Virus record (IMG/VR): IMGVR_UViG_3300025174_000089
DNA from: a virus
Reading direction: 5' to 3' (one strand)
DNA length: 28,502 nt
This document shows, in pieces, positions 7,724 to 27,801 of the stretch. Within the stretch, counting starts at the first letter, position 1. Each line of letters opens with the position of its first letter. A program made the position numbers and the translations under genes. The notes beneath the pieces were generated by a model. It worked only from the letters and a program-made list of their open reading frames with translations, was not told the DNA's origin and searched no databases.

Positions 7724-8638
7724 TTACGCTCCTGCGTTACCGACAATGTGCATCCAGTCCTTGAACTTGACAGAGAAACGAACACGGGACCGGATTTTAA
7801 TCGCATCACGGTCGAAGTCGGCATCTTCCTTGACTTCCTTGGAGATACGATCATAGAACACGAGGTCTTCCTTAAACCTGGTTGTTGCCAAGAACCAATG
7901 AGTAGTCGTGAAGAAACGGCAAGGGACTGGAATAATGTTGTAGGAAGTAAGTGTGTTCTTGTTATTATCAGCGGTATCCGGCTCGCCACGGTCGGTCTCA
8001 AGGATCTTCCGCACGGCCTTGTTCTGCGACGGGTGATAGAGCAGCCACTTCGGAGCATCCGTCAGAGGCAGCCCCTCATGCGTGAACATGCTATACGCAG
8101 TGAAGTTAATCGCCAGCCACAGGTTATCAAACGACAACGATGCAGCAGTCAGATAGTTCGTTACAGACCCACCAGACTTCTGCAGAGTATGTGCAGCGCA
8201 AAGATAAGCACTGTCATACAGGTAATAGCTTGTCCCGCCCGAGAAAGCGTTCACGAACAGGTTTGCAACGGTGTAGTCACGAATGTAGCTGTGACCTTCA
8301 CCAATCATGGTGCCAAGAGAGCTTACGATGTCAGGTAGATTCTTATTGTCCTCAATAAGTTCCTGAGAAACCATTCCACCAAGAGTATACTTGGTGTGAA
8401 TCCACTGAGCTGTCGGAAGTTCTTGGAACCGGCCATAGTAGAACGGAGACAACTCGTTAGTTGCCACCGCAGCGCCAACGCCAGTAAACCCAAACTGCTG
8501 TTCCAACGCAGCCTGGGACTGCTTGATGGTCGCCAGTTGCTCCCAAGACCAATGCTTCGTATCACAAGAGACACGGAAGGCGGGCTGGAAGATCTGGCGG
8601 CTAACGGCACGAGCAAATTCTGGAGTTACCATTGCCAT
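7724..8638 (-). CDS. Major capsid protein (HK97 fold, Mu gpT-like family)
   Basis: 304 aa; HTKYTLGGMVSQELIEDN, YDSAYLCAAHTL, PKWLLYHP, EPDTADNNKN, HWFL and terminal RSRVRFSVKFKDWMHIVGNAGA match the gpT-like MCP pattern; GGAGGT RBS. Confidence 0.88.
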   Translation of the reverse strand: MAMVTPEFARAVSRQIFQPAFRVSCDTKHWSWEQLATIKQSQAALEQQFGFTGVGAAVATNELSPFYYGRFQELPTAQWIHTKYTLGGMVSQELIEDNKNLPDIVSSLGTMIGEGHSYIRDYTVANLFVNAFSGGTSYYLYDSAYLCAAHTLQKSGGSVTNYLTAASLSFDNLWLAINFTAYSMFTHEGLPLTDAPKWLLYHPSQNKAVRKILETDRGEPDTADNNKNTLTSYNIIPVPCRFFTTTHWFLATTRFKEDLVFYDRISKEVKEDADFDRDAIKIRSRVRFSVKFKDWMHIVGNAGA

Positions 8639-10686: not shown

Positions 10687-10877
10687 GTATTTGACACCAA
10701 GAATGAGACTACTTTCATATAAACTTCGTTCCACGTCAAATATCTAAGCTTCATTTCTGCTCCGGTGCTCGCGTGTGCATTTGCAATAGCAGTAGCGGCC
10801 TCCTCTCTAAAATGCATTATAAGATCTTGAAAACCATCATACTTAGCTAATTTCTTGATTTTCTCACGATTAACCAT
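10683..10877 (-). CDS. Small hypothetical protein after the portal (64 aa, MVNREKIKKL...)
   Basis: ATG at 10877 overlaps the end of the portal gene; typical small post-portal gene. Confidence 0.6.
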   Translation of the reverse strand: MVNREKIKKLAKYDGFQDLIMHFREEAATAIANAHASTGAEMKLRYLTWNEVYMKVVSFLVSNT

Positions 10878-12921
10878 TTTTCTTCTCCGTTTTCTTTGCA
10901 TTTGCAACAGCGATCTTTTCCTCAAGCTGCTGAATCTTCAAATCAATTTTAAGCTCCATATTCTCTTCCTGAAGTTGCTGATTCTCCTTCAGAAGCCTCT
11001 CCGCCTCCTTCGTAATTTCCTGAAGTTGCTGTGCAAGCTGCTGCGCCTGCTGCATTAATTCCTGCATCTGACTCTGAAGTTGCTGCACCATCTGCTGGTA
11101 GACCTGACCAACCTGCAACATTGCCTGAACCGGAGGATTAATCTGTTCTATGTCTTTCACCCTAAACTCCTTAAGAAGTCTAGTCAACATAGTAGAATAT
11201 GCATCAGCAGCACCGGCAGCGGCCATCCCAAGCGGCAATCCCTGAGATGCGGCCTCCATCCCCACCTTGAGCAAATCAAGGATCACCCTTTGAGAAGCCC
11301 CAACGCGATCCAACAGAGCAACCATCTCCTGTTTGCGGGTATTCTCGGAAAGCATTGCAGATGTTGCTTTTGGCTCAACCAACACCTTATCTTCAATAAG
11401 TCCAGGCGGAAACTGCACCAGGCCAGGCAAAAACTGCTGATCCACAAATTTCGTATATTCAACCTTATTTTGCCAGAACTGCCGATACCTAGAGAGCATC
11501 TGAATTGACAATTCGGAGATTGCCCCACGACAAATCTCAAGCTTTTCGAACAGCGGCTGCTTGCCCTCTTCGACCAGCAGGGTTTGCCCCGTCGCCGTGG
11601 GGCGATCAACCTGTTCCTGTCCTTGGTTATAGAGGTTGATGGACGCCAAAATGTTAATATGCCTCTCTAAGATTGCAGCCAACTCCAACAGATTATTTGG
11701 AGGTTCGCCCAATTTGAAAACTTCCGTACTTTCCCCCGGAAGACTATTCAGGAGAATAAAATCTCCCATGTTAAATTGCTGAGTTTTGAACAAATCTACG
11801 AGCTGGTGATCTGTAGTCCCTACAAACCAACCCTTTACAGCCAGCGTCCCTGAATCCAAGAGCATATCTATGATGGCCGTGTATGCCTTGTGCAGATGCT
11901 CAAGAATATAGCACAGGCTCATTCCGTCCATCGAATTAGGGCGCCGCTCCCACCACAAGATAACGAATGGCCGCTTATAATTATGATAATAGTTCTCAAT
12001 AGCGCGCAGAATCACCCCGCTGGTATAATCCATCGTGATGATCAACTCCTCTTCGATTCCATCACCATTGATGTCCGCTGCAGTATAGATCTCATGAATC
12101 TCAAAGCGATCCACGGAGGGCTTAAGCCCAAGAAGCTCTTCACGAGTTTTTGTAACTTCATCAATCTCAGCAGCCCGCTGCATCTTCTCAAATACCGGAT
12201 ACCACTCCTGATCACGGATTCTAGACTTGACCGTACTCTCATCTAGATAAACCTTGTGATCTAAGAGTTTTGCAGTATCCTTATCAACCGATGTCGAGGG
12301 ATAAATAAAATCTGACGGGGGGATGAGAACGGGGATCACACCCAGTTTTGAATCATATGTTCGTGGTTGTTCCTGTTGCTGGGTAGTCATCCCCGGAACT
12401 ATACTGCCATCAGGAAGCTGCTGCATCTGTCCAGTAGGAACCTGAGCTTCAACCCATTCCATAACGGTTTTTTGCTCATGAACCCAAGGAACCTTAAGAA
12501 TGCCCATGCCGTAGACGATTGCATTTTCGATCCATTCCATGAATAAGCGCTGGGTATCAAACTGATCAAACGCATAATCCATGAATTCTTCAACCTGCCG
12601 GGCAAAATCCTCGAATTCGGGCTTGCGAGGTTGAGCCACCATCACCTTATCTTGCTGAATGATTGGGTTTACAAGACGCGCCCTGACGGCCTGTACTACT
12701 TCTCTGGTAGTAGGAATGTCAAGCTGCGACTGCCATGAGGCAGGCTTGTCAATCCTCTCGACACGCCCCTCATTCTGCTTTAGCCAAATGGCACGCTTAT
12801 GGTCATATTCCTGCCGATCCTTTAGGGCATCCTTGATATCGTCTTTGAGTGTCTTTGCAAAAAGTTCACGCTGAGACTCACTTTGGAATTGGACATGCTT
12901 TACCTCAACTACGTTTGCCAT
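10870..12921 (-). CDS. Portal protein (P22-like, long C-terminal coiled coil)
   Basis: 683 aa; IENAIVYGMGILKV, DFIYP, IHEIY, RPFVILWWERRPNSMDGMS, VDRPTATG motifs; Gln-rich C-terminal helix; lies after TerL. Confidence 0.88.
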   Translation of the reverse strand: MANVVEVKHVQFQSESQRELFAKTLKDDIKDALKDRQEYDHKRAIWLKQNEGRVERIDKPASWQSQLDIPTTREVVQAVRARLVNPIIQQDKVMVAQPRKPEFEDFARQVEEFMDYAFDQFDTQRLFMEWIENAIVYGMGILKVPWVHEQKTVMEWVEAQVPTGQMQQLPDGSIVPGMTTQQQEQPRTYDSKLGVIPVLIPPSDFIYPSTSVDKDTAKLLDHKVYLDESTVKSRIRDQEWYPVFEKMQRAAEIDEVTKTREELLGLKPSVDRFEIHEIYTAADINGDGIEEELIITMDYTSGVILRAIENYYHNYKRPFVILWWERRPNSMDGMSLCYILEHLHKAYTAIIDMLLDSGTLAVKGWFVGTTDHQLVDLFKTQQFNMGDFILLNSLPGESTEVFKLGEPPNNLLELAAILERHINILASINLYNQGQEQVDRPTATGQTLLVEEGKQPLFEKLEICRGAISELSIQMLSRYRQFWQNKVEYTKFVDQQFLPGLVQFPPGLIEDKVLVEPKATSAMLSENTRKQEMVALLDRVGASQRVILDLLKVGMEAASQGLPLGMAAAGAADAYSTMLTRLLKEFRVKDIEQINPPVQAMLQVGQVYQQMVQQLQSQMQELMQQAQQLAQQLQEITKEAERLLKENQQLQEENMELKIDLKIQQLEEKIAVANAKKTEKKNG

Positions 12922-13183: not shown

Positions 13184-13542
13184 TTCCTTCCTCCAAGCAA
13201 TGCAATTGTAATCCTATTTACAGCACATTCCAAGTCATTCGCGTTTTGCCAGGTTGTAGAAGCAAGTATTAGATGAACAAGTTCATGTACAACCGTATAT
13301 TCCTCATTATACATTTCTACTGTCCCGAGCATATTTTGGGGACGATCACATTTAGGAACAACCCTCATAGAAGCTACCAATTTAGGTAAAAACCAATTTA
13401 GATCTCCGGCAATGAAATTTTCTTTTCCCGGGTCGTTATTTATCTCATTCCATCTCACAAATTGAGACTCAATACTCCATTCTGGCAAATTTAACTTTTT
13501 CTGCCATTTTGAGACAAGCCCTCTCAGGTCACGAATCCTCAC
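13180..13542 (-). CDS. Putative HExxH zinc metallopeptidase-like protein (120 aa)
   Basis: YTVVHELVHLIL motif preceded by the WQKKLNLPEWSI pattern; coupled to the TerL stop. Confidence 0.6.
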   Translation of the reverse strand: MRIRDLRGLVSKWQKKLNLPEWSIESQFVRWNEINNDPGKENFIAGDLNWFLPKLVASMRVVPKCDRPQNMLGTVEMYNEEYTVVHELVHLILASTTWQNANDLECAVNRITIALLGGRK

Positions 13543-15116
13543 GTTTCCCCCTGGAGTCCATAAGAGGCGACTCTCTGCCCACCGCCCCTGTCAGTCCAAT
13601 CCTCAATATCATCGTCATCAGCATACTCCGGCTTCGCCTGACCGTGTTTACCCTGCCAAAATGGCACATGCATGGAGGCCGAGTCAATCAAGTCATCATG
13701 CTTGAGACCAGTAGAGCCATCTGGTCTCGGCTGAAACCCAAGCATCTGCTTGATAAGCGGACCCTGATCACGAGTGAAGTAAATCTGCCCATTCATCACA
13801 TATGGCTGCAGGCCCTCAATCCGCGTTGATTTGTTTGACTTCCCAGCTCCCTGCTTCGGTTTTAGTGGATCTATCCAGAAAAAGTAATTCTGCTGACGCA
13901 TGAACTCTTCCGTAAATGATTTCAATGCAAGTTGATAGCCAGCATGTTCGATACCGGTCTTATGAGGCTTCCACTTCTTGTGGAGTTCCATAATTTTTAT
14001 TGCCTGAAGGCGCGGATCAATCCTACCGTGTGACAACCCAAGTAAAAACCCACGAGCAGTGACACGATCCCAACCGAATATAGTAACGGCAAATTCATCA
14101 GATTCAGCAGTACGCCCAAGAGAAGGATCAATGCACATAGTTCGAAACAGATTCCCCACGTTATATTGAACAGCGTCAGCCACGAGGAGGTGCCCGTATT
14201 CGACCCAATTATAGTATTTGATCCCGTCCGGTCGAAATCGCAAGAGCCCTTCAACCACGGGTTTGTTGAGGATTTGGTAGGAGAAGAATATGTCTTCCAT
14301 GTCTTCAAGGTATCCGGCGATGGTTTCGTGCCCAAGTCCTTCTGGAAACAGTAGATCCCCGTCGTCCCCGGAGAAACCCAGTCGTCGAGCAGGATCGTCG
14401 AGGTATGGCCCGATGATCCAGGTTTCATGTCCCCCCCGGTCAATGATGTACTGATACAAGTCTTGCATGGCCCAGCGGGTTCCCACCACGATACGGATAC
14501 CCTCGTTTCGTCTAACGAAGAGGGGGGAAGAGTTCTTAAACCAGCGTATAACCCTTTCCATGTCGGTTTCCGAAAATGCCGTAGTTTCATCAACCACGTC
14601 ATCAAATATGTGGACATCATAGTGTCCTCCAGTGATGACAGAATCAACTCCTCGGGCCGAGATGGTGGGCTCGGGATAAATCCCATGGCGCGGGAGTTCG
14701 ATGCCCTTCTCGCTGAAGCGGTCGCCGCTTCCCGGCATTAGCTCTGGGAAGTAATGCGAAAAGGCCCATGCAGTGATGGTCTTCTTGAGGTCGTTCATGA
14801 CCTCTTTTACCTTTTCAGCGGACGCCTGGACGATAAGGACTCGAACCTCGGGGTTATTTATGACTAGCCAGAGACTCATGGCTATAGTGAGGAGGGAGGT
14901 CTTATAGACGACCCGAGGAGCCAAAATCATCATTTTACGGTTACCAAAGCGCAGATTGCGCTCTACCCATGCCGCCATTCTTCCGTGAAAGTCTGGCGTC
15001 ATGTCCTTAAAACCGCAAAGTGTTCTAGCTGCGAAAAAGAGTGAGTTTCGACAACTCTCACGGATGAATTCGTGATCTAAGCCACAAATGGCGCAGATAT
15101 TAAGATCTTCGGCTAT
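13539..15116 (-). CDS. terL: Terminase large subunit; probable start at ATA 15116 (first ATG at 15002)
   Basis: Walker A-like ILAPRVVYKTS, Walker B HYDVHIFDDVVDE, GTRW coupling motif, nuclease acidic motifs CIDPS, SDEFA and HDDLID; frame stays open 38 codons upstream of the ATG. Confidence 0.9.
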   Translation of the reverse strand: MAEDLNICAICGLDHEFIRESCRNSLFFAARTLCGFKDMTPDFHGRMAAWVERNLRFGNRKMMILAPRVVYKTSLLTIAMSLWLVINNPEVRVLIVQASAEKVKEVMNDLKKTITAWAFSHYFPELMPGSGDRFSEKGIELPRHGIYPEPTISARGVDSVITGGHYDVHIFDDVVDETTAFSETDMERVIRWFKNSSPLFVRRNEGIRIVVGTRWAMQDLYQYIIDRGGHETWIIGPYLDDPARRLGFSGDDGDLLFPEGLGHETIAGYLEDMEDIFFSYQILNKPVVEGLLRFRPDGIKYYNWVEYGHLLVADAVQYNVGNLFRTMCIDPSLGRTAESDEFAVTIFGWDRVTARGFLLGLSHGRIDPRLQAIKIMELHKKWKPHKTGIEHAGYQLALKSFTEEFMRQQNYFFWIDPLKPKQGAGKSNKSTRIEGLQPYVMNGQIYFTRDQGPLIKQMLGFQPRPDGSTGLKHDDLIDSASMHVPFWQGKHGQAKPEYADDDDIEDWTDRGGGQRVASYGLQGET

Positions 15117-16083: not shown

Positions 16084-16280
16084 AACTTCTCCTTTGCTAT
16101 TGGATCTGTATCCATATCCCCAATATCGTCCAGAGGATTCTCTGGATCATCCTCATCATCTCCGGGATCTAGTTTTGTCCAAATCTCATCATGCAATCCC
16201 CATTTATCGGCCCATTCACAACCAAGATCAAACATAGTTAAACCAATATTGGTCAAGAACTTAATCAGAAGGAGTCTCAT
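16080..16280 (-). CDS. Small acidic hypothetical protein (66 aa)
   Basis: GAGGTGG RBS; hydrophobic N-terminus, Asp-rich C-terminus; ATGA overlap with the HNH gene. Confidence 0.6.
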   Translation of the reverse strand: MRLLLIKFLTNIGLTMFDLGCEWADKWGLHDEIWTKLDPGDDEDDPENPLDDIGDMDTDPIAKEKL

Positions 16281-17004
16281 CTACCACCTCAGCTTGTTCA
16301 ATGATAATGTGCCCAGCATCAAGTTCTGTATACGTTTTCACCTCCGAAGGTTCCGAAAGTCTCTTAATGCGTTCCATGATGCCGATGGTGTCCTTGATAA
16401 CCTGTAGGGCCTCCGGATTTGGCGTCTGAGCTGCGATCTTGGCCTGGGTGGCATCCTTACCCATGTCGAAGCGATCCATCGCGTCCTGGGCAGCCTTGGC
16501 GCGCACGCCGCCCGGTTGCATCGGGTCATCCATGAGTTCTTCCATCACCAGGGGCGCTCTCAATGCAGCCCTTTGATACAGGGCCAACATTCGACTCCAG
16601 ACGACAGGGCGCCGCACACCAGCGTCCTTTACTGCCTCATCAGCGACCTTTTGTAATGCTCTACGGTATTCCCGGTCATGCCTACCAATCAAATGCGCTA
16701 TCGTAGTCGGCTTCTTCCCTAGTTTTTCTGCAATCTCAGCATAACTAAGTCCCTCTTCTATCTGCATCTTAACAATCTTTTCGATGTTCTCAAGAGTGGC
16801 CCTTCGTGGTCCTGTTACGGAAACCAATTTTGGTTGTTTAGATGCGTTTTTTAAAGCCCACTTTTCTTTATCAGTGAGCGATTCTCCATCTCTTTTCTTT
16901 GCATAGGCTCTACTTACGACCTGTTTAAAGGTCTCTTTCTTCTCATCGTCAGGATTAACATCGCCTTTCGGATTCTGCCATTGAATGAGTTTATCTTTAC
17001 TCAT
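16261..17004 (-). CDS. HTH protein, candidate terminase small subunit
   Basis: Start MSKDKL at 17004; HTH GLSYAEIAEKLGKKPTTIAHLI followed by helices (VMEELMDD...RAKAAQDAMDRF) typical of TerS oligomerisation regions; upstream of TerL. Confidence 0.55.
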   Translation of the reverse strand: MSKDKLIQWQNPKGDVNPDDEKKETFKQVVSRAYAKKRDGESLTDKEKWALKNASKQPKLVSVTGPRRATLENIEKIVKMQIEEGLSYAEIAEKLGKKPTTIAHLIGRHDREYRRALQKVADEAVKDAGVRRPVVWSRMLALYQRAALRAPLVMEELMDDPMQPGGVRAKAAQDAMDRFDMGKDATQAKIAAQTPNPEALQVIKDTIGIMERIKRLSEPSEVKTYTELDAGHIIIEQAEVVDETPSD

Positions 17005-17254
17005 TTTTTCCCTGTCTATATTCAGACAATAGAGAGTCAACCTTAGTAGTTTCAATAACTGACGCAAAATAAGTAATTTGATTCAATTGCTCGCGGTATG
17101 GCTTACGATCGAGCAAATTAAGCCTAATCTTCAGTGCCCTACGGTCCGAATCCCATTCAGCGTCTATAACTTGAAATCTCTCAGAAAAATAGGGCTCAAG
17201 CCACTCATGAAGTTTCTCTACAGAGAAGCGAATACCATAAATTGAGTCGCTCAT
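16997..17254 (-). CDS. Hypothetical protein (85 aa)
   Basis: Tiled ORF with overlaps at both ends. Confidence 0.65.
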   Translation of the reverse strand: MSDSIYGIRFSVEKLHEWLEPYFSERFQVIDAEWDSDRRALKIRLNLLDRKPYREQLNQITYFASVIETTKVDSLLSEYRQGKNE

Positions 17255-21798: not shown

Positions 21799-21835
21799 TC
21801 TCCCAGGGGGCGAAAGCCCCTTGGGAGACTTTTGT
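21799..21835 (+). terminator. Rho-independent terminator
   Basis: TCTCCCAGGGGGC-GAAA-GCCCCTTGGGAGA 13-bp stem (one G-U) followed by CTTTTGTT. Confidence 0.85.
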
Positions 21836-23206: not shown

Positions 23207-23440
23207 ATGCCAATACCGCCAAAAGTATTAGCAGATAAGTATGCCGATTTGCAAAACAGATTGGCCGAGATTAGAATTGAGGAAAATGAATTGCACTGGG
23301 CACATTTAACGGGAGAAAATAAAGATTTTCTTCACCAGAATCTCAAATTGTTGTGTGAGGCTCTTGAAGTTGCTCGTGCCCAGCTTGGCTGGTGTGAATT
23401 TTACTTTAATCAGCTTGCCGCGAATGGGAAATCTGAATGA
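23207..23440 (+). CDS. Small coiled-coil protein (77 aa)
   Basis: GGAGGA RBS; heptad pattern; ATGA overlap with the next gene. Confidence 0.65.
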   Translation: MPIPPKVLADKYADLQNRLAEIRIEENELHWAHLTGENKDFLHQNLKLLCEALEVARAQLGWCEFYFNQLAANGKSE

Positions 23441-24117
23441 CCAAAGACAAGAAATGCAGTATTTGCGGGAAAGGTGTGTATGAAAACGAGATTTCTCCTC
23501 ATACATTATCCGATGGATCAACGCCTGCTGGTGAATTTTGCAGCAAACACTGCCCCTGTGGCAAACCTCCTCATTTCGTATGGAGTGATTTAGATGAATG
23601 GCATTGTCCTAGTTGTAAAGCACACTGGGCTGCTGAGTGTTCTTGTGACAGTTTAGGAGTCGAGATAGTGTCCAAAGGAAAAAAGTTACCCGCTACAATT
23701 GATTGGCAGTACGTAGCTACATTTGTAGCCCTACCCATAGATCCTGGCACTCCACCTGTGAATAAAATCATTACCATTGTACGCTCGTCCCAAAAGGGGA
23801 AGGCTGATTTGTTCAAACTTTTAGAGTTTTGTTTTATGGATGTTTCTTATTCTGGTTCTGAGACGAAAAAAGTAATTCCTATGTCAATATCTGTAGAGGA
23901 CGACAACTGTGTTTTGCTTGGCACTGCCATTGCCAGTTCATTTAAACATTTGTTGGGAGGTTTTAATATTTATGAAAAATGGATGAATAACTTGGGGAAA
24001 TGCCCCTATCATATTGTCATTTTAGGAGGGGAAAATATCAAGAAACATAGCAGTATGGCGTCTTCGCTGGTTTTTCAGTGGCTTTCAGAGCTTCATTTGG
24101 ACCACAGTTTTTTGTGA
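23437..24117 (+). CDS. Protein with Cys/His-rich (multi-zinc) N-terminus and unknown alpha/beta C-terminus (226 aa)
   Basis: CSIC, FCSKHCPC, HCPSC, H...CSC in the first ~75 aa; directly upstream of the dikinase-like gene. Confidence 0.75.
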   Translation: MTKDKKCSICGKGVYENEISPHTLSDGSTPAGEFCSKHCPCGKPPHFVWSDLDEWHCPSCKAHWAAECSCDSLGVEIVSKGKKLPATIDWQYVATFVALPIDPGTPPVNKIITIVRSSQKGKADLFKLLEFCFMDVSYSGSETKKVIPMSISVEDDNCVLLGTAIASSFKHLLGGFNIYEKWMNNLGKCPYHIVILGGENIKKHSSMASSLVFQWLSELHLDHSFL

Positions 24118-24124
24118 GGGTTAA

Positions 24125-26392
24125 ATGAATAGAATAGAAAGCGGTTGGGCTACTGTATTGGGATACGAAAAGGTATCTCAAATATCTTCACAAAAGGCGC
24201 GCGGTATTGCACTAGTTTCGCAGCTTGGGTATTTTTCCGTGCTAAACACCGTTATTATTTCTTCACAAGAAGCACGGAAATTGGACTCATCTATAATGAA
24301 TAAAGAATTTAGTGAGTCAGTAATAGATCGTTCCTTTACTCTTGACTTACCAATCTTACTAAGAACGTGCCCAGTCACGCCAAGGCACGGGATTCTCGGA
24401 AACAAAAAAATTGTGCTCAAGAGGGTTTCGGAATTACAGGGAGCCTGTTCTGAACTTGCATATTCCATGCTTGAGTATGGCGAATCCGAAGGGGACATTG
24501 TAATACAACCATTTGTTAACGCAGCAATGAATTTGGTTTGGACTAATGGGCATGTGGTAATTGGTCCTGATTTTGATGGTGCAACTGCAGGAAAATTTCC
24601 ATCATTTGGACTTAACGTTCTTTGGCCCAAGTGGTTAGAAAAAGGTATCACAGAGCACATTAAAGGTGATAAACACCATGAGCTTGAATTTGTGATAGAT
24701 AAATCCACAAATGTATTCTGCACTCAAATTCGAGAATCAACAAAACACAAGGATAAGGGACTCGTAGTTTTGCCGAATTCAATTCCAGGATTTGTTCCTG
24801 ATGCAACAAGTCCAAGACTTGGTAAAGAATACTTTGTTATAAAAGTTAAGGGAACGGATCTTGAAATTCTTGAGAAGTTAAAAATAGAAAACGTGCTAGT
24901 CATGCACCAAGCGGGAAATCTCCTTTCCCATGCGTCGGCACATTGTAGGCAAAGGGGATGGGCATATATCTCTAGGATTCTAAATCCAAAGGATATTGAG
25001 AATTGTTATATATGTGAACCCGCACCCGGCAGTGTAATGTTTCTAGAAAAACCAGCAATCGGGGTTAATGTTTCTATTGAAGATTACAAAGCTCAGTTTC
25101 TCGAAGGGTTGCAATTTGTCCTTAAAAATAAGGTTGCGCCGCCGGATCATTGGAGGGCGTTTACTTTATCATTTGCTTTTCATCATTTTAGTACAGGGCA
25201 GAGTCTAAGCCCGGAGATTGCATACCTCGCCGGGATATTTGCGGGCGTCATGTTAAAGTCTGCATTCGCAATTATACTTGGTGAGATGAGGCATTTTGAA
25301 AATCTAGTAGCAGAGACGGATGGATCTGTTTCCGAGTGCTGGGAGATATTTTTGGGTGCCATTTCGGATTCGCTCCACTTGGAAAAGGAAACTCCTAGGA
25401 ATCAGATTTATAAGAGAGTTTTTTCCACAGATTGCAGTAAGTATCTTGGGCGTATTTTGGCGTTGATGAGGGCGTGTCGTATACTATATAATAAGATTCA
25501 ATGGGGAAGCGGATATGGCGGTGATGCATGGGGGAGAGTTACGAGAGCCGCCGTGCGTTCTGTAATTGCTTTGAACTTAGGGAACATGAAGTTTATTTTG
25601 AGAGAGATTAATCTGCTTACGAATGCAGCACATAACTGTGGGTGGGCGTTTAACAAATTTACCGGCCAACAGGATTTGCTGTACTTTATGGGAGATTTCC
25701 TAGGTAATCCACATTGGCCGGTCGGTCTTTCTATGGCCATGAGCGTGCTCAGGAAAGGGATACCAACTTTAGATAAGGACAACTCCACAATTTTTGTTAA
25801 AGAGAACGTTAGGGAATCATTGATTGAGATAGCAAAATTACTTTCAAAAGCATCAGCCATTAAGAAAGTGGGTTTCAAAAAGAAGGCCCCCGATGTAGAT
25901 GTATCCAAGGGATTTACTGCTGCAAAGAAACCAAGTTGTTATATAGCCGTATTTGATAAGCCTTATTCATTGACTGGAGATGAAGTGCCAGAATTTGCTT
26001 TGAGTGGCGAAGCAAAGCTTACGTCACTAGCAAAAGAAAAGGATTACGAGGCGGAGCAGTTAGACAGTAATGAAAAACAAGAGTTTTGTGGCACTGTTTT
26101 CGATTTACAATCGTGTGAAATGTTTCATTCTATGATAACTAATCTTCTTAATGAACCGGATGGCACAGTGGTAACCTTTAATCCAAATATTGCAGAACAA
26201 ATGGCTGATGATGAAAATTGTGGTATTCTACATTCTATAAAAAATAGTCTCAGTCTAGAACTGCCAGGAAATCAAGAGATTGCGTACTTAGAAATGTCAT
26301 GGGCTTATGAACTTCTTTGTGACTCCTATAAGATTGGAGCTAAAAATATGAAGGAACTGTCAAAGGGAGAAAATGATGGCAAAGAAAAATAA
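24125..26392 (+). CDS. PPDK/PEP-synthase-like phosphotransferase: ATP-grasp domain + phospho-His swivel domain + unknown C-terminal domain (755 aa)
   Basis: LLRTCP..PRHG, IVIQPFV, HELEFVI...FCTQIR resemble the ATP-grasp of the PPDK N-domain; AGNLLSHASAHCRQRG matches the GGxTSHAAxxxRxxG swivel motif (His269); no recognisable PEP-binding TIM barrel. Confidence 0.7.
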   Translation: MNRIESGWATVLGYEKVSQISSQKARGIALVSQLGYFSVLNTVIISSQEARKLDSSIMNKEFSESVIDRSFTLDLPILLRTCPVTPRHGILGNKKIVLKRVSELQGACSELAYSMLEYGESEGDIVIQPFVNAAMNLVWTNGHVVIGPDFDGATAGKFPSFGLNVLWPKWLEKGITEHIKGDKHHELEFVIDKSTNVFCTQIRESTKHKDKGLVVLPNSIPGFVPDATSPRLGKEYFVIKVKGTDLEILEKLKIENVLVMHQAGNLLSHASAHCRQRGWAYISRILNPKDIENCYICEPAPGSVMFLEKPAIGVNVSIEDYKAQFLEGLQFVLKNKVAPPDHWRAFTLSFAFHHFSTGQSLSPEIAYLAGIFAGVMLKSAFAIILGEMRHFENLVAETDGSVSECWEIFLGAISDSLHLEKETPRNQIYKRVFSTDCSKYLGRILALMRACRILYNKIQWGSGYGGDAWGRVTRAAVRSVIALNLGNMKFILREINLLTNAAHNCGWAFNKFTGQQDLLYFMGDFLGNPHWPVGLSMAMSVLRKGIPTLDKDNSTIFVKENVRESLIEIAKLLSKASAIKKVGFKKKAPDVDVSKGFTAAKKPSCYIAVFDKPYSLTGDEVPEFALSGEAKLTSLAKEKDYEAEQLDSNEKQEFCGTVFDLQSCEMFHSMITNLLNEPDGTVVTFNPNIAEQMADDENCGILHSIKNSLSLELPGNQEIAYLEMSWAYELLCDSYKIGAKNMKELSKGENDGKEK

Positions 26393-27212
26393 CGATACAA
26401 AAACAACACCAACTGAATGCCACTGGGGCAACTTAGAGGTATTCAGTACAGAATACTCTGTATACTATGGCGGAGGTAAAACAAGAGGAGCAAAAACCGG
26501 AGAGGTAGACGTGATTATAGATCTTGCGCCAAGAACATATGGTACCGGAACTGGATATGCAACAACCTCCCCCCTTTACAGTAAATTGCTGACCCTAAAG
26601 GGTGTTGATGAATTTCTACAGCGTGTTGTTGATAAGGAAAAGGATTACAAGAAAGATCAAATAACATTTGAGTTGGATTGGGACGACCTGGGAGTGCCGC
26701 CATTTACGAAGAAATTCTTTGAGGAGTTCGCGGCAGCCCTTGAAGATGGCTCGCGAGCATTCTTAGAATCTCGCAAAACAAAAAGAAAGATTCTTGTAAT
26801 GTGCGCTGGCGGACATGGAAGAACCGGCACGATGATTGCTATTTTAGCTTTGATAAATGGAGCATTGGCTGGTGATAAAAAAGTTCTTGAGAACATTAGG
26901 GATATGTATTGCCCTAACTGTGTGGAGGCGTTTTGTCAGGCCGAGCTGATTGGTCTTTTTTGTAAAGAGTCTTTCCAATTTACCCTACCGCCCAAAAAGG
27001 CAGCATTAATTGACGCGCATTATGGTTTTGAAGACAGTTCTACTGGCGAGTACAGGTTTCCGTCTAAGAAAGGGGGCATTAAGGATGAGCCTGCAGCAAA
27101 AAAAGCGATAAGTTGTGGAAAGGAGGATACCTTTGTTGGGGTAACGATGAATGACCCGGAATTTGACTATGAGTATGACTGTCAGGATTGTAAGTGGCAT
27201 AGGAGGAAGTAA
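26373..27212 (+). CDS. Cys-based (PTP/dual-specificity-like) phosphatase (279 aa)
   Basis: ILVMCAGGHGRTGT is a CX5R P-loop (Cys144); WDDLGVP acid loop upstream; VEAFCQ resembles the Q-loop region. Confidence 0.85.
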   Translation: MMAKKNNDTKTTPTECHWGNLEVFSTEYSVYYGGGKTRGAKTGEVDVIIDLAPRTYGTGTGYATTSPLYSKLLTLKGVDEFLQRVVDKEKDYKKDQITFELDWDDLGVPPFTKKFFEEFAAALEDGSRAFLESRKTKRKILVMCAGGHGRTGTMIAILALINGALAGDKKVLENIRDMYCPNCVEAFCQAELIGLFCKESFQFTLPPKKAALIDAHYGFEDSSTGEYRFPSKKGGIKDEPAAKKAISCGKEDTFVGVTMNDPEFDYEYDCQDCKWHRRK

Positions 27213-27294: not shown

Positions 27295-27801
27295 ATGGAC
27301 AAAGACCTGCACCCGATCTTTCAAACAATGGCGTTGCTCGAAATGGTGGAGCCCGGAAAGCTTCCAGATCCGGAAAGTGATGACTACAAAAAGTATGTGG
27401 AGTTGCACACGGGTCCATTTGAAACGAATCAAAAGGAGTTTGATGGGAAGGTTTATGTTCAGGGGCAGATTAGGCAGGTTGATCCCGATTCCCCAATGTT
27501 CAAGATTCAAATTCCTAACTCTGCTGGAGAATGGTATCTTTCGTTACCGTTGTTGATGAAAGACCTTCCCAGTCCGTTGATGAAGGATGCGCCATCTTTG
27601 TATCCTGAATCCAGCGCTAAGATTTTTTACTACAAGGTATGGGTTTCTCCGCTAAAAAAAGCCAAGTGCGGGTCTTGTGACAAGGATCATGGCGTGTTAG
27701 ATGTGATCTTTGTGCAGGATGAGGAGAAGAGAACAGAGGGAATGTCGGATCAGGCGTATGCATTCGTGGAGAGCATTCTTGACGAACTGAAGCAAAATTA
27801 A
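27295..27801 (+). CDS. Hypothetical acidic protein (168 aa) with a CGSC motif
   Basis: AAGGAGG RBS; no recognised family. Confidence 0.8.
   Translation: MDKDLHPIFQTMALLEMVEPGKLPDPESDDYKKYVELHTGPFETNQKEFDGKVYVQGQIRQVDPDSPMFKIQIPNSAGEWYLSLPLLMKDLPSPLMKDAPSLYPESSAKIFYYKVWVSPLKKAKCGSCDKDHGVLDVIFVQDEEKRTEGMSDQAYAFVESILDELKQN

Follow-up and report, generated by a model that had tools for sequence, protein, structure and literature searches.

A Probable, Strongly Diverged Dikinase with a Helical Third Domain Is Encoded Next to a Cys-Based Phosphatase in a Phage Gene Module

Results

The window, by which we mean the whole analyzed stretch of 28,502 nucleotides of viral DNA, harbors on its plus strand two overlapping open reading frames encoding proteins of 755 and 279 amino acids, respectively (Table 1). 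Both genes had been reported in a first-pass annotation and both were recovered, the first starting with ATG and sharing 20 nucleotides with the second. Likewise, all motifs claimed for the two proteins were found in the translations at the residues named, i.e., RTCP..PRHG (80-89), IQPFV (127-131), ELEFV (186-190), QIR (201-203), SH (268-269), GYGGDAW (463-469), and HNCG..FNK (503-511) in the 755-aa protein and C144AGGHGR150 in the 279-aa protein. The Shine-Dalgarno-like sequence of the first gene overlaps the TGA stop codon (24115-24117) of the preceding gene. That of the second gene is located inside the end of the first, suggesting translational coupling of the phosphatase gene.

Table 1. 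Positions of the genes, domains, and putative ribosome binding sites at the locus.
Feature	Position	Strand	Size or residues	Basis or remark
Shine-Dalgarno-like GAGGG	24116..24120	+		4 nt 5′ of the ATG of the dikinase-like gene
Dikinase-like gene, whole ORF; probable three-domain swivel-His phosphotransferase	24125..26392	+	755 aa	
Compact ATP-grasp domain (predicted)	24146..24769	+	~8-215	AF2, VIA, hhalign motif register
Phospho-His swivel domain (predicted)	24770..25060	+	~216-312	VIA, PpsA register, invariance
All-helical third domain, presumed acceptor site	25061..25804	+	~313-560	AF2; phrog_20946 homology
Variable C-terminal tail	25805..26389	+	561-755	Conserved in closest relatives only
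Shine-Dalgarno-like GGGAG for the phosphatase gene	26365..26369	+		Within the 3′ end of the dikinase-like gene
Cys-based phosphatase (PTP superfamily)	26373..27212	+	279 aa	Pfam, phrog_17568, family conservation
Gene 3′ of the phosphatase gene	27295..27801	+	168 aa	44% identity to related locus L001

An exhaustive HMMER search with the 755-aa protein yielded 655 cluster representatives (50% identity clusters) at E ≤ 1e-3. In an alignment of 73 homologues with 20-46% identity, the residues R80, P83, G89, G152, T154, E188, Q201, R203, and H269 are invariant, as are E387, R389, G465, G466, H503, and N504 in the third domain; K24 is at least nearly so, together with R80, E188, Q201, and R203. Invariance across such divergent homologues indicates that the motifs did not arise by chance. 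The ATP-grasp residues of note are K24, R80, G152/T154, E186/E188, and Q201/R203, the swivel motif reads G-x-x-x-S-H-x-x-x-x-x-R with an invariant S268-H269, and the third domain is marked by FH353, GE387xR389H390, W460..GYGG466..W469, and N496..H503N504xG..FNK511. The conservation presumed for His269 was thereby confirmed, and the residue registers with the His421 motif of E. coli PpsA. The tails of many homologues of both proteins contain Zn-ribbon-like Cys motifs. Among the sequences covered here the family is found almost only in phages: in bacterial and archaeal genomes, one sequence pattern matched a single contig (a 30-kb contig of a Parvibaculum sp. MAG) and a second gave no match, both patterns being so narrow that absence from bacteria is not thereby proven.

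The linkage of the two genes, which had likewise been proposed, is kept in related viruses. The phosphatase gene lies directly downstream of the dikinase-like gene in 54 of the 58 related viral loci that contain both, with an overlap of exactly 4 nt in 28 loci, and these two families are the only ones universal in the neighborhoods. Fusion of the phosphatase to the dikinase-like protein was seen in none of 263 family proteins. As a candidate for a universal third gene we considered a family of ~140 aa, which follows the phosphatase gene in 37 loci; it was rejected, being absent from the window. The 168-aa gene of the window is unrelated to this family and is shared with the closest relative, L001, only; it is possibly an accessory partner of the closest-relative subgroup, with uncertain membership in the module.

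Sequence searches of Pfam, PHROGs, NCBIfam, and PADLOC returned no match for the 755-aa protein. Neither the PPDK_N nor the PEP-utilizers model detects it, and nothing was found among PDB sequences by phmmer with the protein or by the family profile; PF00391 (PEP-utilizers) has no match in a related complete phage either. In tblastn searches of 50,697 phage records, no matches were obtained with the window protein and the family members P0019 and P0035, and the family member P0009 matched uncultured Manatee Spring podoviruses only.

The AF2 model of the protein (pLDDT 89.7, pTM 0.92) matched PPDK (1dik, E 4e-7) as well as RPH in a Foldseek search. With VIA-align, model residues 8-308 were superimposed on RPH 5hv3 (Z 17.1, rmsd 3.6, 278 aligned) and residues 8-312 on positions 7-513 of PPDK 1dik (Z 16.6), the alignments reaching residues 308-312 and taking in the His domain of RPH as far as residue 866 and that of PPDK as far as 513. 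The ATP-grasp domain by itself matched RPH 5fbs (Z 14.0, rmsd 2.9, 184 aligned) and PPDK 5jvl (Z 14.0). Moreover, hhalign comparison with the cultured-phage kinases and E. coli PpsA (E 5e-4) placed ELEF and QxR over DIEW and QAR, and SH over His421; the pairwise values were weak, with E 0.038 and 5e-4 and a probability of 1-31%. On the basis of the predicted structure and these short motifs, the first domain is assigned as an ATP-grasp domain of the swivel-His dikinase superfamily (VIA Z 14-17), and the second, from the structural alignment and the invariant H269, as its swivel domain. In this superfamily, ATP and Mg are bound by conserved Lys, Arg, Glu, Gln, and Arg residues, and the swivel domain (beta/beta/alpha) carries the catalytic His within G-G-x-T/S-x-H-x-x-x-x-x-R.

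The same searches bear on the alternative that the protein is an ADP-forming ATP-grasp ligase, in which the "swivel" would be merely structural. Foldseek indeed gave significant matches to D-Ala-D-Ala ligases, RimK, LysX, and macrocyclases. However, generic ATP-grasp enzymes reach only Z 9-11, as compared to Z 14-17 for the dikinases, which alone align through the second domain. Given in addition the invariance of the His motif and its alignment with that of PpsA, and that the split homologues of cultured phages described below carry canonical PPDK_N and PEP-utilizers domains, we consider a ligase extremely unlikely.

As had been claimed, no TIM barrel follows the swivel domain. In the model, residues ~313-570 form helices only, without any strand (pLDDT 85-90), and PEP-utilizers_C has no Pfam or NCBIfam match in the 755-aa protein, which thus lacks the C-terminal PEP/pyruvate barrel of PPDK and PEP synthase. 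Nor is the order of domains that of RPH, in which the swivel is C-terminal: according to AF2 and VIA, the swivel (216-312) directly follows the ATP-grasp domain and precedes the third domain, which corresponds to the PPDK order. When the helical domain alone was compared with the PDB, the best Foldseek match had an E value of 0.34, and the best VIA-align match among 48,161 chains had a Z of 7.0, which is in the noise range for helical proteins. The best VIA matches were GPCR-like and designed bundles, and RPH was absent among the fold matches listed. In a language-model search with two family members, clusters of Rph_4th (PF27448), the Pfam family of the RIF-binding domain of RPH (apex, arm 1, arm 2), ranked first with scores of 0.85 and 0.78, which are below the reliable range.

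The main new relationship emerged from comparison with cultured phages. The family of the helical domain aligns with RcZahn gp10, a member of phrog_20946, with an hhalign probability of 97.2% (E 3.4e-11), and the EaRH, GYGG, and HNnG..FNK motifs are kept. The PHROG search likewise matched phrog_20946 to the family members P0009 and P0035, and the family HMM detected the phrog_20946 proteins of six out of six cultured phages tested (1e-9 to 3e-4). Judged from these profile comparisons, the helical third domain is homologous to the free-standing protein phrog_20946.

In cultured siphophages, the phrog_20946 gene is located between phosphatase genes, shortly 3′ of a gene annotated as PPDK. The named carriers are the Rhodobacter phage RcZahn (gp6-gp11), the Rhizobium phage RHph_TM16, the Vibrio phages SIO-2, D4, and J26, and the Stenotrophomonas phage DLP_5. 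Records of the phrog_20946 protein come from phages of Vibrio (33), Stenotrophomonas (4), Rhizobium (2), and Rhodobacter (1), which are also the host groups of the truncated "PPDK", and the two genes are ~3 kb apart. The cassette comprises genes of one strand only, spans ~5 kb between terminase and DNA polymerase, and usually includes two phosphatase-like genes with small genes in between. Its "PPDK" covers positions 12-523 of the 865 positions of TIGR01828 (570 bits as compared to a cut-off of 843) and has no match to PEP-utilizers_C; like the window protein, it has ATP-grasp and swivel domains and no barrel. The helical protein and the phosphatases (phrog_17568; HMMER 1e-15 to 1e-23) are homologous to their counterparts in the window as well. 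In contrast, the cultured-phage kinase has a canonical PPDK_N plus PEP-utilizers sequence with ~200 extra C-terminal residues and the helical domain is encoded by its own gene, whereas in the window the kinase has diverged past sequence recognition and all parts except the phosphatase are fused. Since its helical domain is homologous to the protein encoded beside the truncated "PPDK", the window carries the fused, strongly diverged form of a "PPDK"/phosphatase/phrog_20946/phosphatase cassette, and comparison of the two forms identifies the missing third domain as phrog_20946. The cassette is annotated piecemeal (PPDK, tyrosine phosphatase, hypothetical protein), and its parts are treated in the literature as separate metabolic genes. 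The system had been put forward as undescribed; this stands insofar as our literature searches retrieved no functional study of the module, but not with regard to the genes themselves, as the split cassette is present in ~40 cultured-phage genomes.

These data decide upon the reading suggested by database annotation, namely that the protein is a true metabolic enzyme, either PPDK or PEP synthase, encoded by an auxiliary metabolic gene for the interconversion of pyruvate and PEP. The fold and order of the first two domains are common to PPDK, the cultured-phage relatives are so annotated, and one paper supports the role by modeling and docking. However, the third domain is helical and no barrel is present, no Pfam or NCBIfam model matches the 755-aa protein, and the cultured-phage "PPDK" ends before the barrel as well. 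Moreover, PEP metabolism has no place for the obligate linkage to a Cys phosphatase. In agreement with the first-pass annotation, we therefore reject the identity of the 755-aa protein as a metabolic PPDK, for which we see a vanishingly small probability.

The 279-aa protein is recognized by the Pfam models Y_phosphatase (7e-7, 29.5 bits; cut-off 20.9) and PTP-SAK (7.6e-7, 29.7 bits; cut-off 27) and by phrog_17568. Its P-loop C144-R150-T151-G152 is encoded at nucleotides 26802-26828. In 47-55 homologues, C144-A-G-G-H-G-R150-T151, D105 in a WPD-type loop, DW(P/D)D..P, and E185 and Q189 in a Q-loop-like segment are invariant; C16 and C180 are conserved. The family profile matches classical PTP D1 domains in the PDB (RPTP epsilon/alpha, E 2e-10), and the alignment puts the WPD, P-, and Q-loops onto those of RPTP epsilon/alpha D1. 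The protein thus combines the C-X5-R signature followed by S/T with the general-acid Asp and the Q-loop Gln of the PTP superfamily and, judged from C144, R150, D105, and Q189, is a catalytically complete Cys phosphatase. The presence of both D105 and Q189 indicates that its substrate is a phosphomonoester rather than an anhydride.

The same two residues bear on a PTS-like phosphorelay, in which a phosphoryl group would pass from His269, possibly via His503, to Cys144, so that the "phosphatase" would act as a phosphotransferase. PTS enzyme I has the same swivel domain, and its relay terminates on a cysteinyl phosphate. The strict gene coupling and the invariance of H503, which lies on a helix, agree with such a relay, as does the similarity of RPH subdomains to parts of the PTS (PMC4844700). 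However, an invariant Q189 together with an invariant general acid typifies hydrolytic PTPs, and no HPt-like or EIIB-like match for the helical domain was obtained in the fold searches, which renders a relay very unlikely.

A kinase and a phosphatase side by side are also reminiscent of nucleic-acid end healing as by T4 Pnkp. Here, the dikinase would act on 5′-OH and the phosphatase on 3′-phosphates, making RNA or DNA cut by host defense nucleases repairable, and both activities would be accounted for without a futile cycle. The surroundings fit, with DnaB and Rad52 encoded in the related locus L001, SNF2 in L002, and DNA polymerase and DNA ligase near the cassette of cultured phages, as do the Zn-ribbon-like motifs in many homologue tails. 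However, no ligase is consistently linked among the neighborhood families, the phosphatase profile, with its WPD- and Q-loops, is nearer to the classical pTyr phosphatases than to polynucleotide phosphatases, and Foldseek and VIA-align detected no nucleic-acid-binding fold in the helical domain. End healing is therefore unlikely in our view. With respect to DNA hypermodification at hydroxymethyl-pyrimidines, two complete relatives of 107-111 kb contain no thymidylate-synthase-like gene, and this candidate was discarded.

Discussion

In our interpretation, the 755-aa protein is probably a strongly diverged dikinase of the PPDK/PEP synthase/RPH class with a helical acceptor domain, which together with its coupled phosphatase constitutes a fused phage module. 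By analogy with PPDK and RPH, ATP would be bound by the compact ATP-grasp domain via K24, R80, E186/E188, and Q201/R203. The swivel His269 would then attack the β-phosphate, whereupon AMP would leave and the γ-phosphate would be released as Pi, and the swivel domain would ferry the β-phosphate to the third domain. There, an acceptor hydroxyl held by E387/R389/H390, the YGG loop, and H503/N504/K511 would be converted into a phosphomonoester. The helical nature of this domain and its occurrence as the separate protein phrog_20946 in cultured phages argue against pyruvate as the acceptor; candidates are a protein tyrosine or another aryl or alkyl hydroxyl, a nucleotide-type small molecule, or a nucleic-acid end. 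The phosphatase may remove the same mark or act at another position of the same substrate. This gene pair probably forms an obligate, phage-restricted module expressed alongside early and replication genes.

The first-pass annotation had viewed the pair as a writer and an eraser. Since a kinase and a phosphatase present at coupled levels and acting on one mark would constitute a futile cycle, this simple view may be wrong. Tentatively, we propose as one possibility a phospho-switch in host takeover or counter-defense, in which the dikinase acts on something that no dikinase is known to modify, for instance a tyrosine in a host or phage protein, or an immune signal or cofactor derived from a nucleotide. 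The phrog_20946-type domain would recognize the target and catalyze the transfer, with the phosphatase restricting the mark or resetting it. If true, this would be the first signaling system of a virus that is based on a dikinase, and its enzyme would represent a new class of kinases for proteins or nucleotides.

Few acceptors are known for the swivel-His dikinases, a small class of enzymes to which the phage proteins add a large family with a new, presumed acceptor domain. The carbon-metabolism annotation of the cultured-phage relatives in databases and papers is very probably wrong. The module has been preserved across genomes that range from podophage-like ones of 40 kb to those of 110-kb phages, and it probably serves a general, as yet unrecognized step of infection. 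For identification of the substrate, cultured phages of Vibrio, Stenotrophomonas, and Rhodobacter offer tractable systems.

Like PPDK of C. symbiosum (1DIK/1KBL) and E. coli PpsA, the window protein is predicted to have an ATP-grasp domain followed by a phospho-His swivel, with the equivalent Lys/Arg/Glu/Gln/Arg ATP-site residues and the SH motif. In contrast to these enzymes, its ATP-grasp domain is ~130 residues shorter, its sequence has no Pfam or NCBIfam match, a helical third domain replaces the PEP/pyruvate TIM barrel, and it has an obligate phosphatase partner. The best structural match of the window protein is RPH (L. monocytogenes 5HV1/5HV3; Z 17.1). RPH and the small-molecule dikinases phenylphosphate synthase and HpeHI likewise have a non-barrel, largely helical acceptor domain and phosphorylate a hydroxyl other than that of pyruvate. 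However, RPH is arranged as ATP-grasp, RIF-binding domain, and swivel, whereas the swivel of the window protein is central, and RPH lacks a phosphatase partner. To our knowledge, glucan, water dikinase with the glucan phosphatases SEX4/LSF2/laforin of plants and animals is the sole well-studied pair of a swivel-His dikinase and a Cys phosphatase of the PTP fold that acts on one substrate in a productive cycle. The genes for glucan, water dikinase and glucan phosphatase are unlinked in plants. The likeness is one of analogy only, as the domain order differs, and Pfam detected no carbohydrate-binding module in the window proteins.

Phage Context of the Gene Pair

The window is phage DNA, and its dikinase-like and phosphatase genes both lie within the plus-strand early block, where they overlap by 20 nucleotides. 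All motifs quoted for the two ORFs in the first-pass annotation were found at the residues it named. The 226-aa protein encoded upstream of the pair is not significantly similar to the product of the gene that takes this place in L001, the closest relative.

Features of the window with their coordinates
Feature	Position (nt)	Strand	Remarks
Beta-helix tail protein, 721 aa	1809-3974	minus	Right-handed beta-helix/NosD matches, weak polysaccharide-lyase match; likely a depolymerase tailspike
Capsid protein	7724-8638	minus	
SU10-type portal	10870-12921	minus	
Terminase	13539-15002	minus	
268-aa protein	16261-17067	minus	HTH_38 and sigma-70 region 4 matches; adjoins packaging genes; may be a small-terminase-like DNA binder or a phage transcription factor
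Block of small early genes	from ~20.7 kb	plus	
Strong terminator-like hairpin	21799-21828	plus	Inside early block; 13-bp stem, 9 G-C pairs, T run after; lies in a stretch of G+C 0.56, above that of its flanks
Small early ORF, 73 aa	22453-22674	plus	Paralogue of the 65-aa ORF (BLASTP E 5e-11); common motif W-S-F..W-P-P-Y-L..G-R
Small early ORF, 65 aa	23009-23206	plus	
226-aa protein	23437-24117	plus	Immediately 5′ of dikinase-like gene; Cys-rich zinc-finger-like motifs at its start; weak zf-FCS match (7.8e-4)
Dikinase-like ORF, 755 aa	24125-26392	plus	Own Shine-Dalgarno-like site
Phosphatase ORF, 279 aa	26373-27212	plus	Own Shine-Dalgarno-like site

The Kinase and Phosphatase Genes Form a Conserved Module

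Searches of Pfam, PHROGs, NCBIfam, PADLOC and PDB sequences returned zero matches for the 755-aa protein. A word-indexed search yielded 31 relatives, none of which carries a Pfam domain. When 1.84 billion cluster representatives were searched exhaustively with HMMER, 655 passed E ≤ 1e-3, 204 of them also passing E ≤ 1e-10. The family keeps a core of residues 20-520, flanked by highly variable N-terminal extensions and C-terminal tails. In 73 sequences of 20-46% identity, R80, P83, G89, G152, T154, E188, Q201, R203, E387, R389, G465, G466, H503 and N504 are invariant, as is the proposed swivel histidine, His269.

Gene linkage was followed in 59 IMG/VR loci and three contigs encoding database homologues. 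The dikinase-like gene is present in 61 loci, the phosphatase in 59 and both in 58; contig ends are among the loci without a phosphatase match. In 54 of the 58 loci the two genes are adjacent on the same strand, 28 of these 54 with a 4-nt start/stop overlap, so that the phosphatase neighbour is indeed kept across phage genomes, and all-against-all clustering of the neighbourhoods gave these two families as the only universal ones. The carrier contigs range from ~40 kb to ~110 kb, some being complete genomes by CheckV, and among them a circular 41-kb podovirus genome from Manatee Spring matches the window in gene layout. Narrow patterns run against 185,579 bacterial and archaeal species genomes gave a single MAG contig. 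Taken together, the dikinase and the phosphatase are a real, conserved module that is almost only phage-borne in the searches made.

In a subgroup of ~100-kb phages, a ~140-aa family without known domain directly follows the phosphatase in 37 loci (e.g., locus L002, 9717-10133); it is not present in the window. In locus L073, NUDIX and NAMPT genes lie ~6 kb downstream.

A Predicted Miniaturised Dikinase Core with a Helical Third Domain

An AlphaFold2 model of residues 1-570, calculated from a 73-sequence alignment, reached a pLDDT of 89.7 and a pTM of 0.92. Foldseek against the PDB ranked pyruvate, phosphate dikinase (PPDK, 1dik; E 4e-7) first, followed by rifampin phosphotransferase (RPH) and ATP-grasp ligases. 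The VIA-align alignments with RPH 5hv3 (Z 17.1, rmsd 3.6 Å, 278 residues; model 8-308 on chain 7-866) and PPDK 1dik (Z 16.6; model 8-312 on chain 7-513) extend over the ATP-grasp as well as the phospho-His swivel domain; generic ATP-grasp enzymes reached only Z 9-11, with alignments ending at the first domain. The sequence-level relation to E. coli PEP synthase (PpsA) is faint, yet in register: hhalign placed G-x-L-L-S-H269-A-x-x-x-C-R of the family profile on G-G-R-T-C-H421-A-A-I-I-A-R, and in the comparison with PpsA and six cultured-phage kinases (E 5e-4) E-L-E188-F and Q201-x-R203 fall on D-I-E-W and Q-A-R of PpsA. In PPDK the counterparts of these two motifs are D321/E323 and Q335/R337, and that of K24 in S-Q-K-A is K22; PDB titles among the VIA-align matches name K22A, R337A and T453A mutants. 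On the strength of the fold matches and the in-register motifs, residues 1-312 as modelled form a dikinase nucleotide-binding domain in miniature together with the swivel domain, and up to phospho-His269 the chemistry can be inferred on sound grounds.

Residues 313-560 are helical throughout in the model, and modelled by itself this domain gave a pLDDT of 84.9. Foldseek against solved structures found no credible relative (best E 0.34), and exhaustive VIA-align peaked at Z 7.0 with GPCR-like proteins and designed bundles, the noise range for helical proteins. Because the third domain is all-helical and without credible structural relative, it is not the PEP/pyruvate TIM barrel, in agreement with the first-pass annotation. 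The statement there that the protein is not a metabolic PPDK likewise stands, the helical domain taking the place of the barrel; a true PPDK role for the module kinase is very unlikely. In a protein-language-model search, clusters of the Pfam family Rph_4th ranked first for two family members (scores 0.85 and 0.78), which is a lead only.

Cultured Phages Carry a Split Cassette

Rhodobacter phage RcZahn was reached by tblastn with a distant phosphatase homologue. Its gp6, annotated as 'pyruvate phosphate dikinase', is followed by two small genes (gp7, gp8), a phosphatase (gp9), a 357-aa hypothetical protein (gp10) and another phosphatase (gp11). The gp6 protein has canonical PPDK_N (2.9e-50) and PEP-utilizers (2.2e-25) domains without the barrel, and matches only positions 12-523 of 865 in TIGR01828 (570 bits; cut-off 843). 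The gp10 protein belongs to phrog_20946 (5e-78) and aligns by hhalign with the helical domain of the window protein (97.2%, E 3.4e-11, query 356-512), keeping E-a-R-H, W-x-G-G-Y-G-G-p-a-W and a-H-N-n-G-p-i-F-N-K.

Rhizobium RHph_TM16 and Vibrio D4, SIO-2 and Vpas_PP24 have the same cassette, flanked by terminase and DNA polymerase, and it is present in Stenotrophomonas DLP_5 too; family HMMs matched the helical protein and phosphatases in all six cultured phages. As a separate gene, the helical protein is present in 40 phage records (Vibrio 33, Stenotrophomonas 4, Rhizobium 2, Rhodobacter 1), ~3 kb from the truncated kinase, and the host groups of both are identical. Whereas kinase and phrog_20946 are separate genes in these phages, the window has both in one protein. 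Given the homology and the shared cassette, the window protein fuses the two functions, which argues for phrog_20946 as the missing third domain of the truncated kinase.

The cultured-phage relatives of the module are very probably mis-annotated. DLP05_143 of DLP_5 (locus L069, 8613-9401), labelled 'thymidylate synthase thyX', is a CX5R phosphatase homologue (phrog_17568, 6.8e-59; phosphatase family HMM, 6e-21), and this mislabel appears to be the source of the name 'thymidylate synthase' for the phosphatase family phrog_17568, because the second DLP_5 phosphatase gene is so annotated.

The Phosphatase and the Possible Acceptor

The 279-aa protein scores above threshold for Pfam Y_phosphatase and PTP-SAK. 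In 47-55 homologues there is little or no variation at C16, D105, C144, G147-G152 (G-H-G-R-T-G), C180, E185 and Q189, and classical receptor-PTP D1 domains align with the family profile (up to E 2e-10) across the WPD loop, P-loop and Q-loop. An Asp as general acid and a Gln in the Q-loop are characteristic of hydrolytic phosphomonoesterases and not of the RNA-triphosphatase branch; with D105 and Q189, the enzyme is expected to act on a phosphomonoester.

The resemblance to classical PTPs favours an aryl or alkyl phosphomonoester, with protein tyrosine and small hydroxyl compounds among the candidate acceptors. A small molecule or nucleotide as target is also in play, since the PTP-SAK match equals that to Y_phosphatase in strength, there are phosphatase matches to nucleotide-conflict families, and some kinase family members (e.g., P0196, P0172, P0216, P0217, P0253) bear a hexapeptide-repeat (left-handed beta-helix, acyltransferase-like) domain N-terminal to the dikinase core. 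Nucleic-acid end-healing is likewise in play, in view of replication genes nearby and Zn-ribbon tails. A route of hydroxymethyl-pyrimidine DNA modification is unlikely.

Comparison with Known Dikinases

The searchable literature on the module parts consists of genome descriptions only. A 2025 paper on Vibrio phage J26 counts the kinase, as PPDK, and the phosphatase as two unconnected auxiliary metabolic genes, and states that the structure and function of viral PPDK have not been studied in detail (PMC12038007). The experimental entry points to the module are clear. RPH and newer cases such as HpeHI and VadK show that members of the dikinase class have come to use acceptors other than pyruvate (PMC4844700, PMC13400623), and the window module is a new form within this class.
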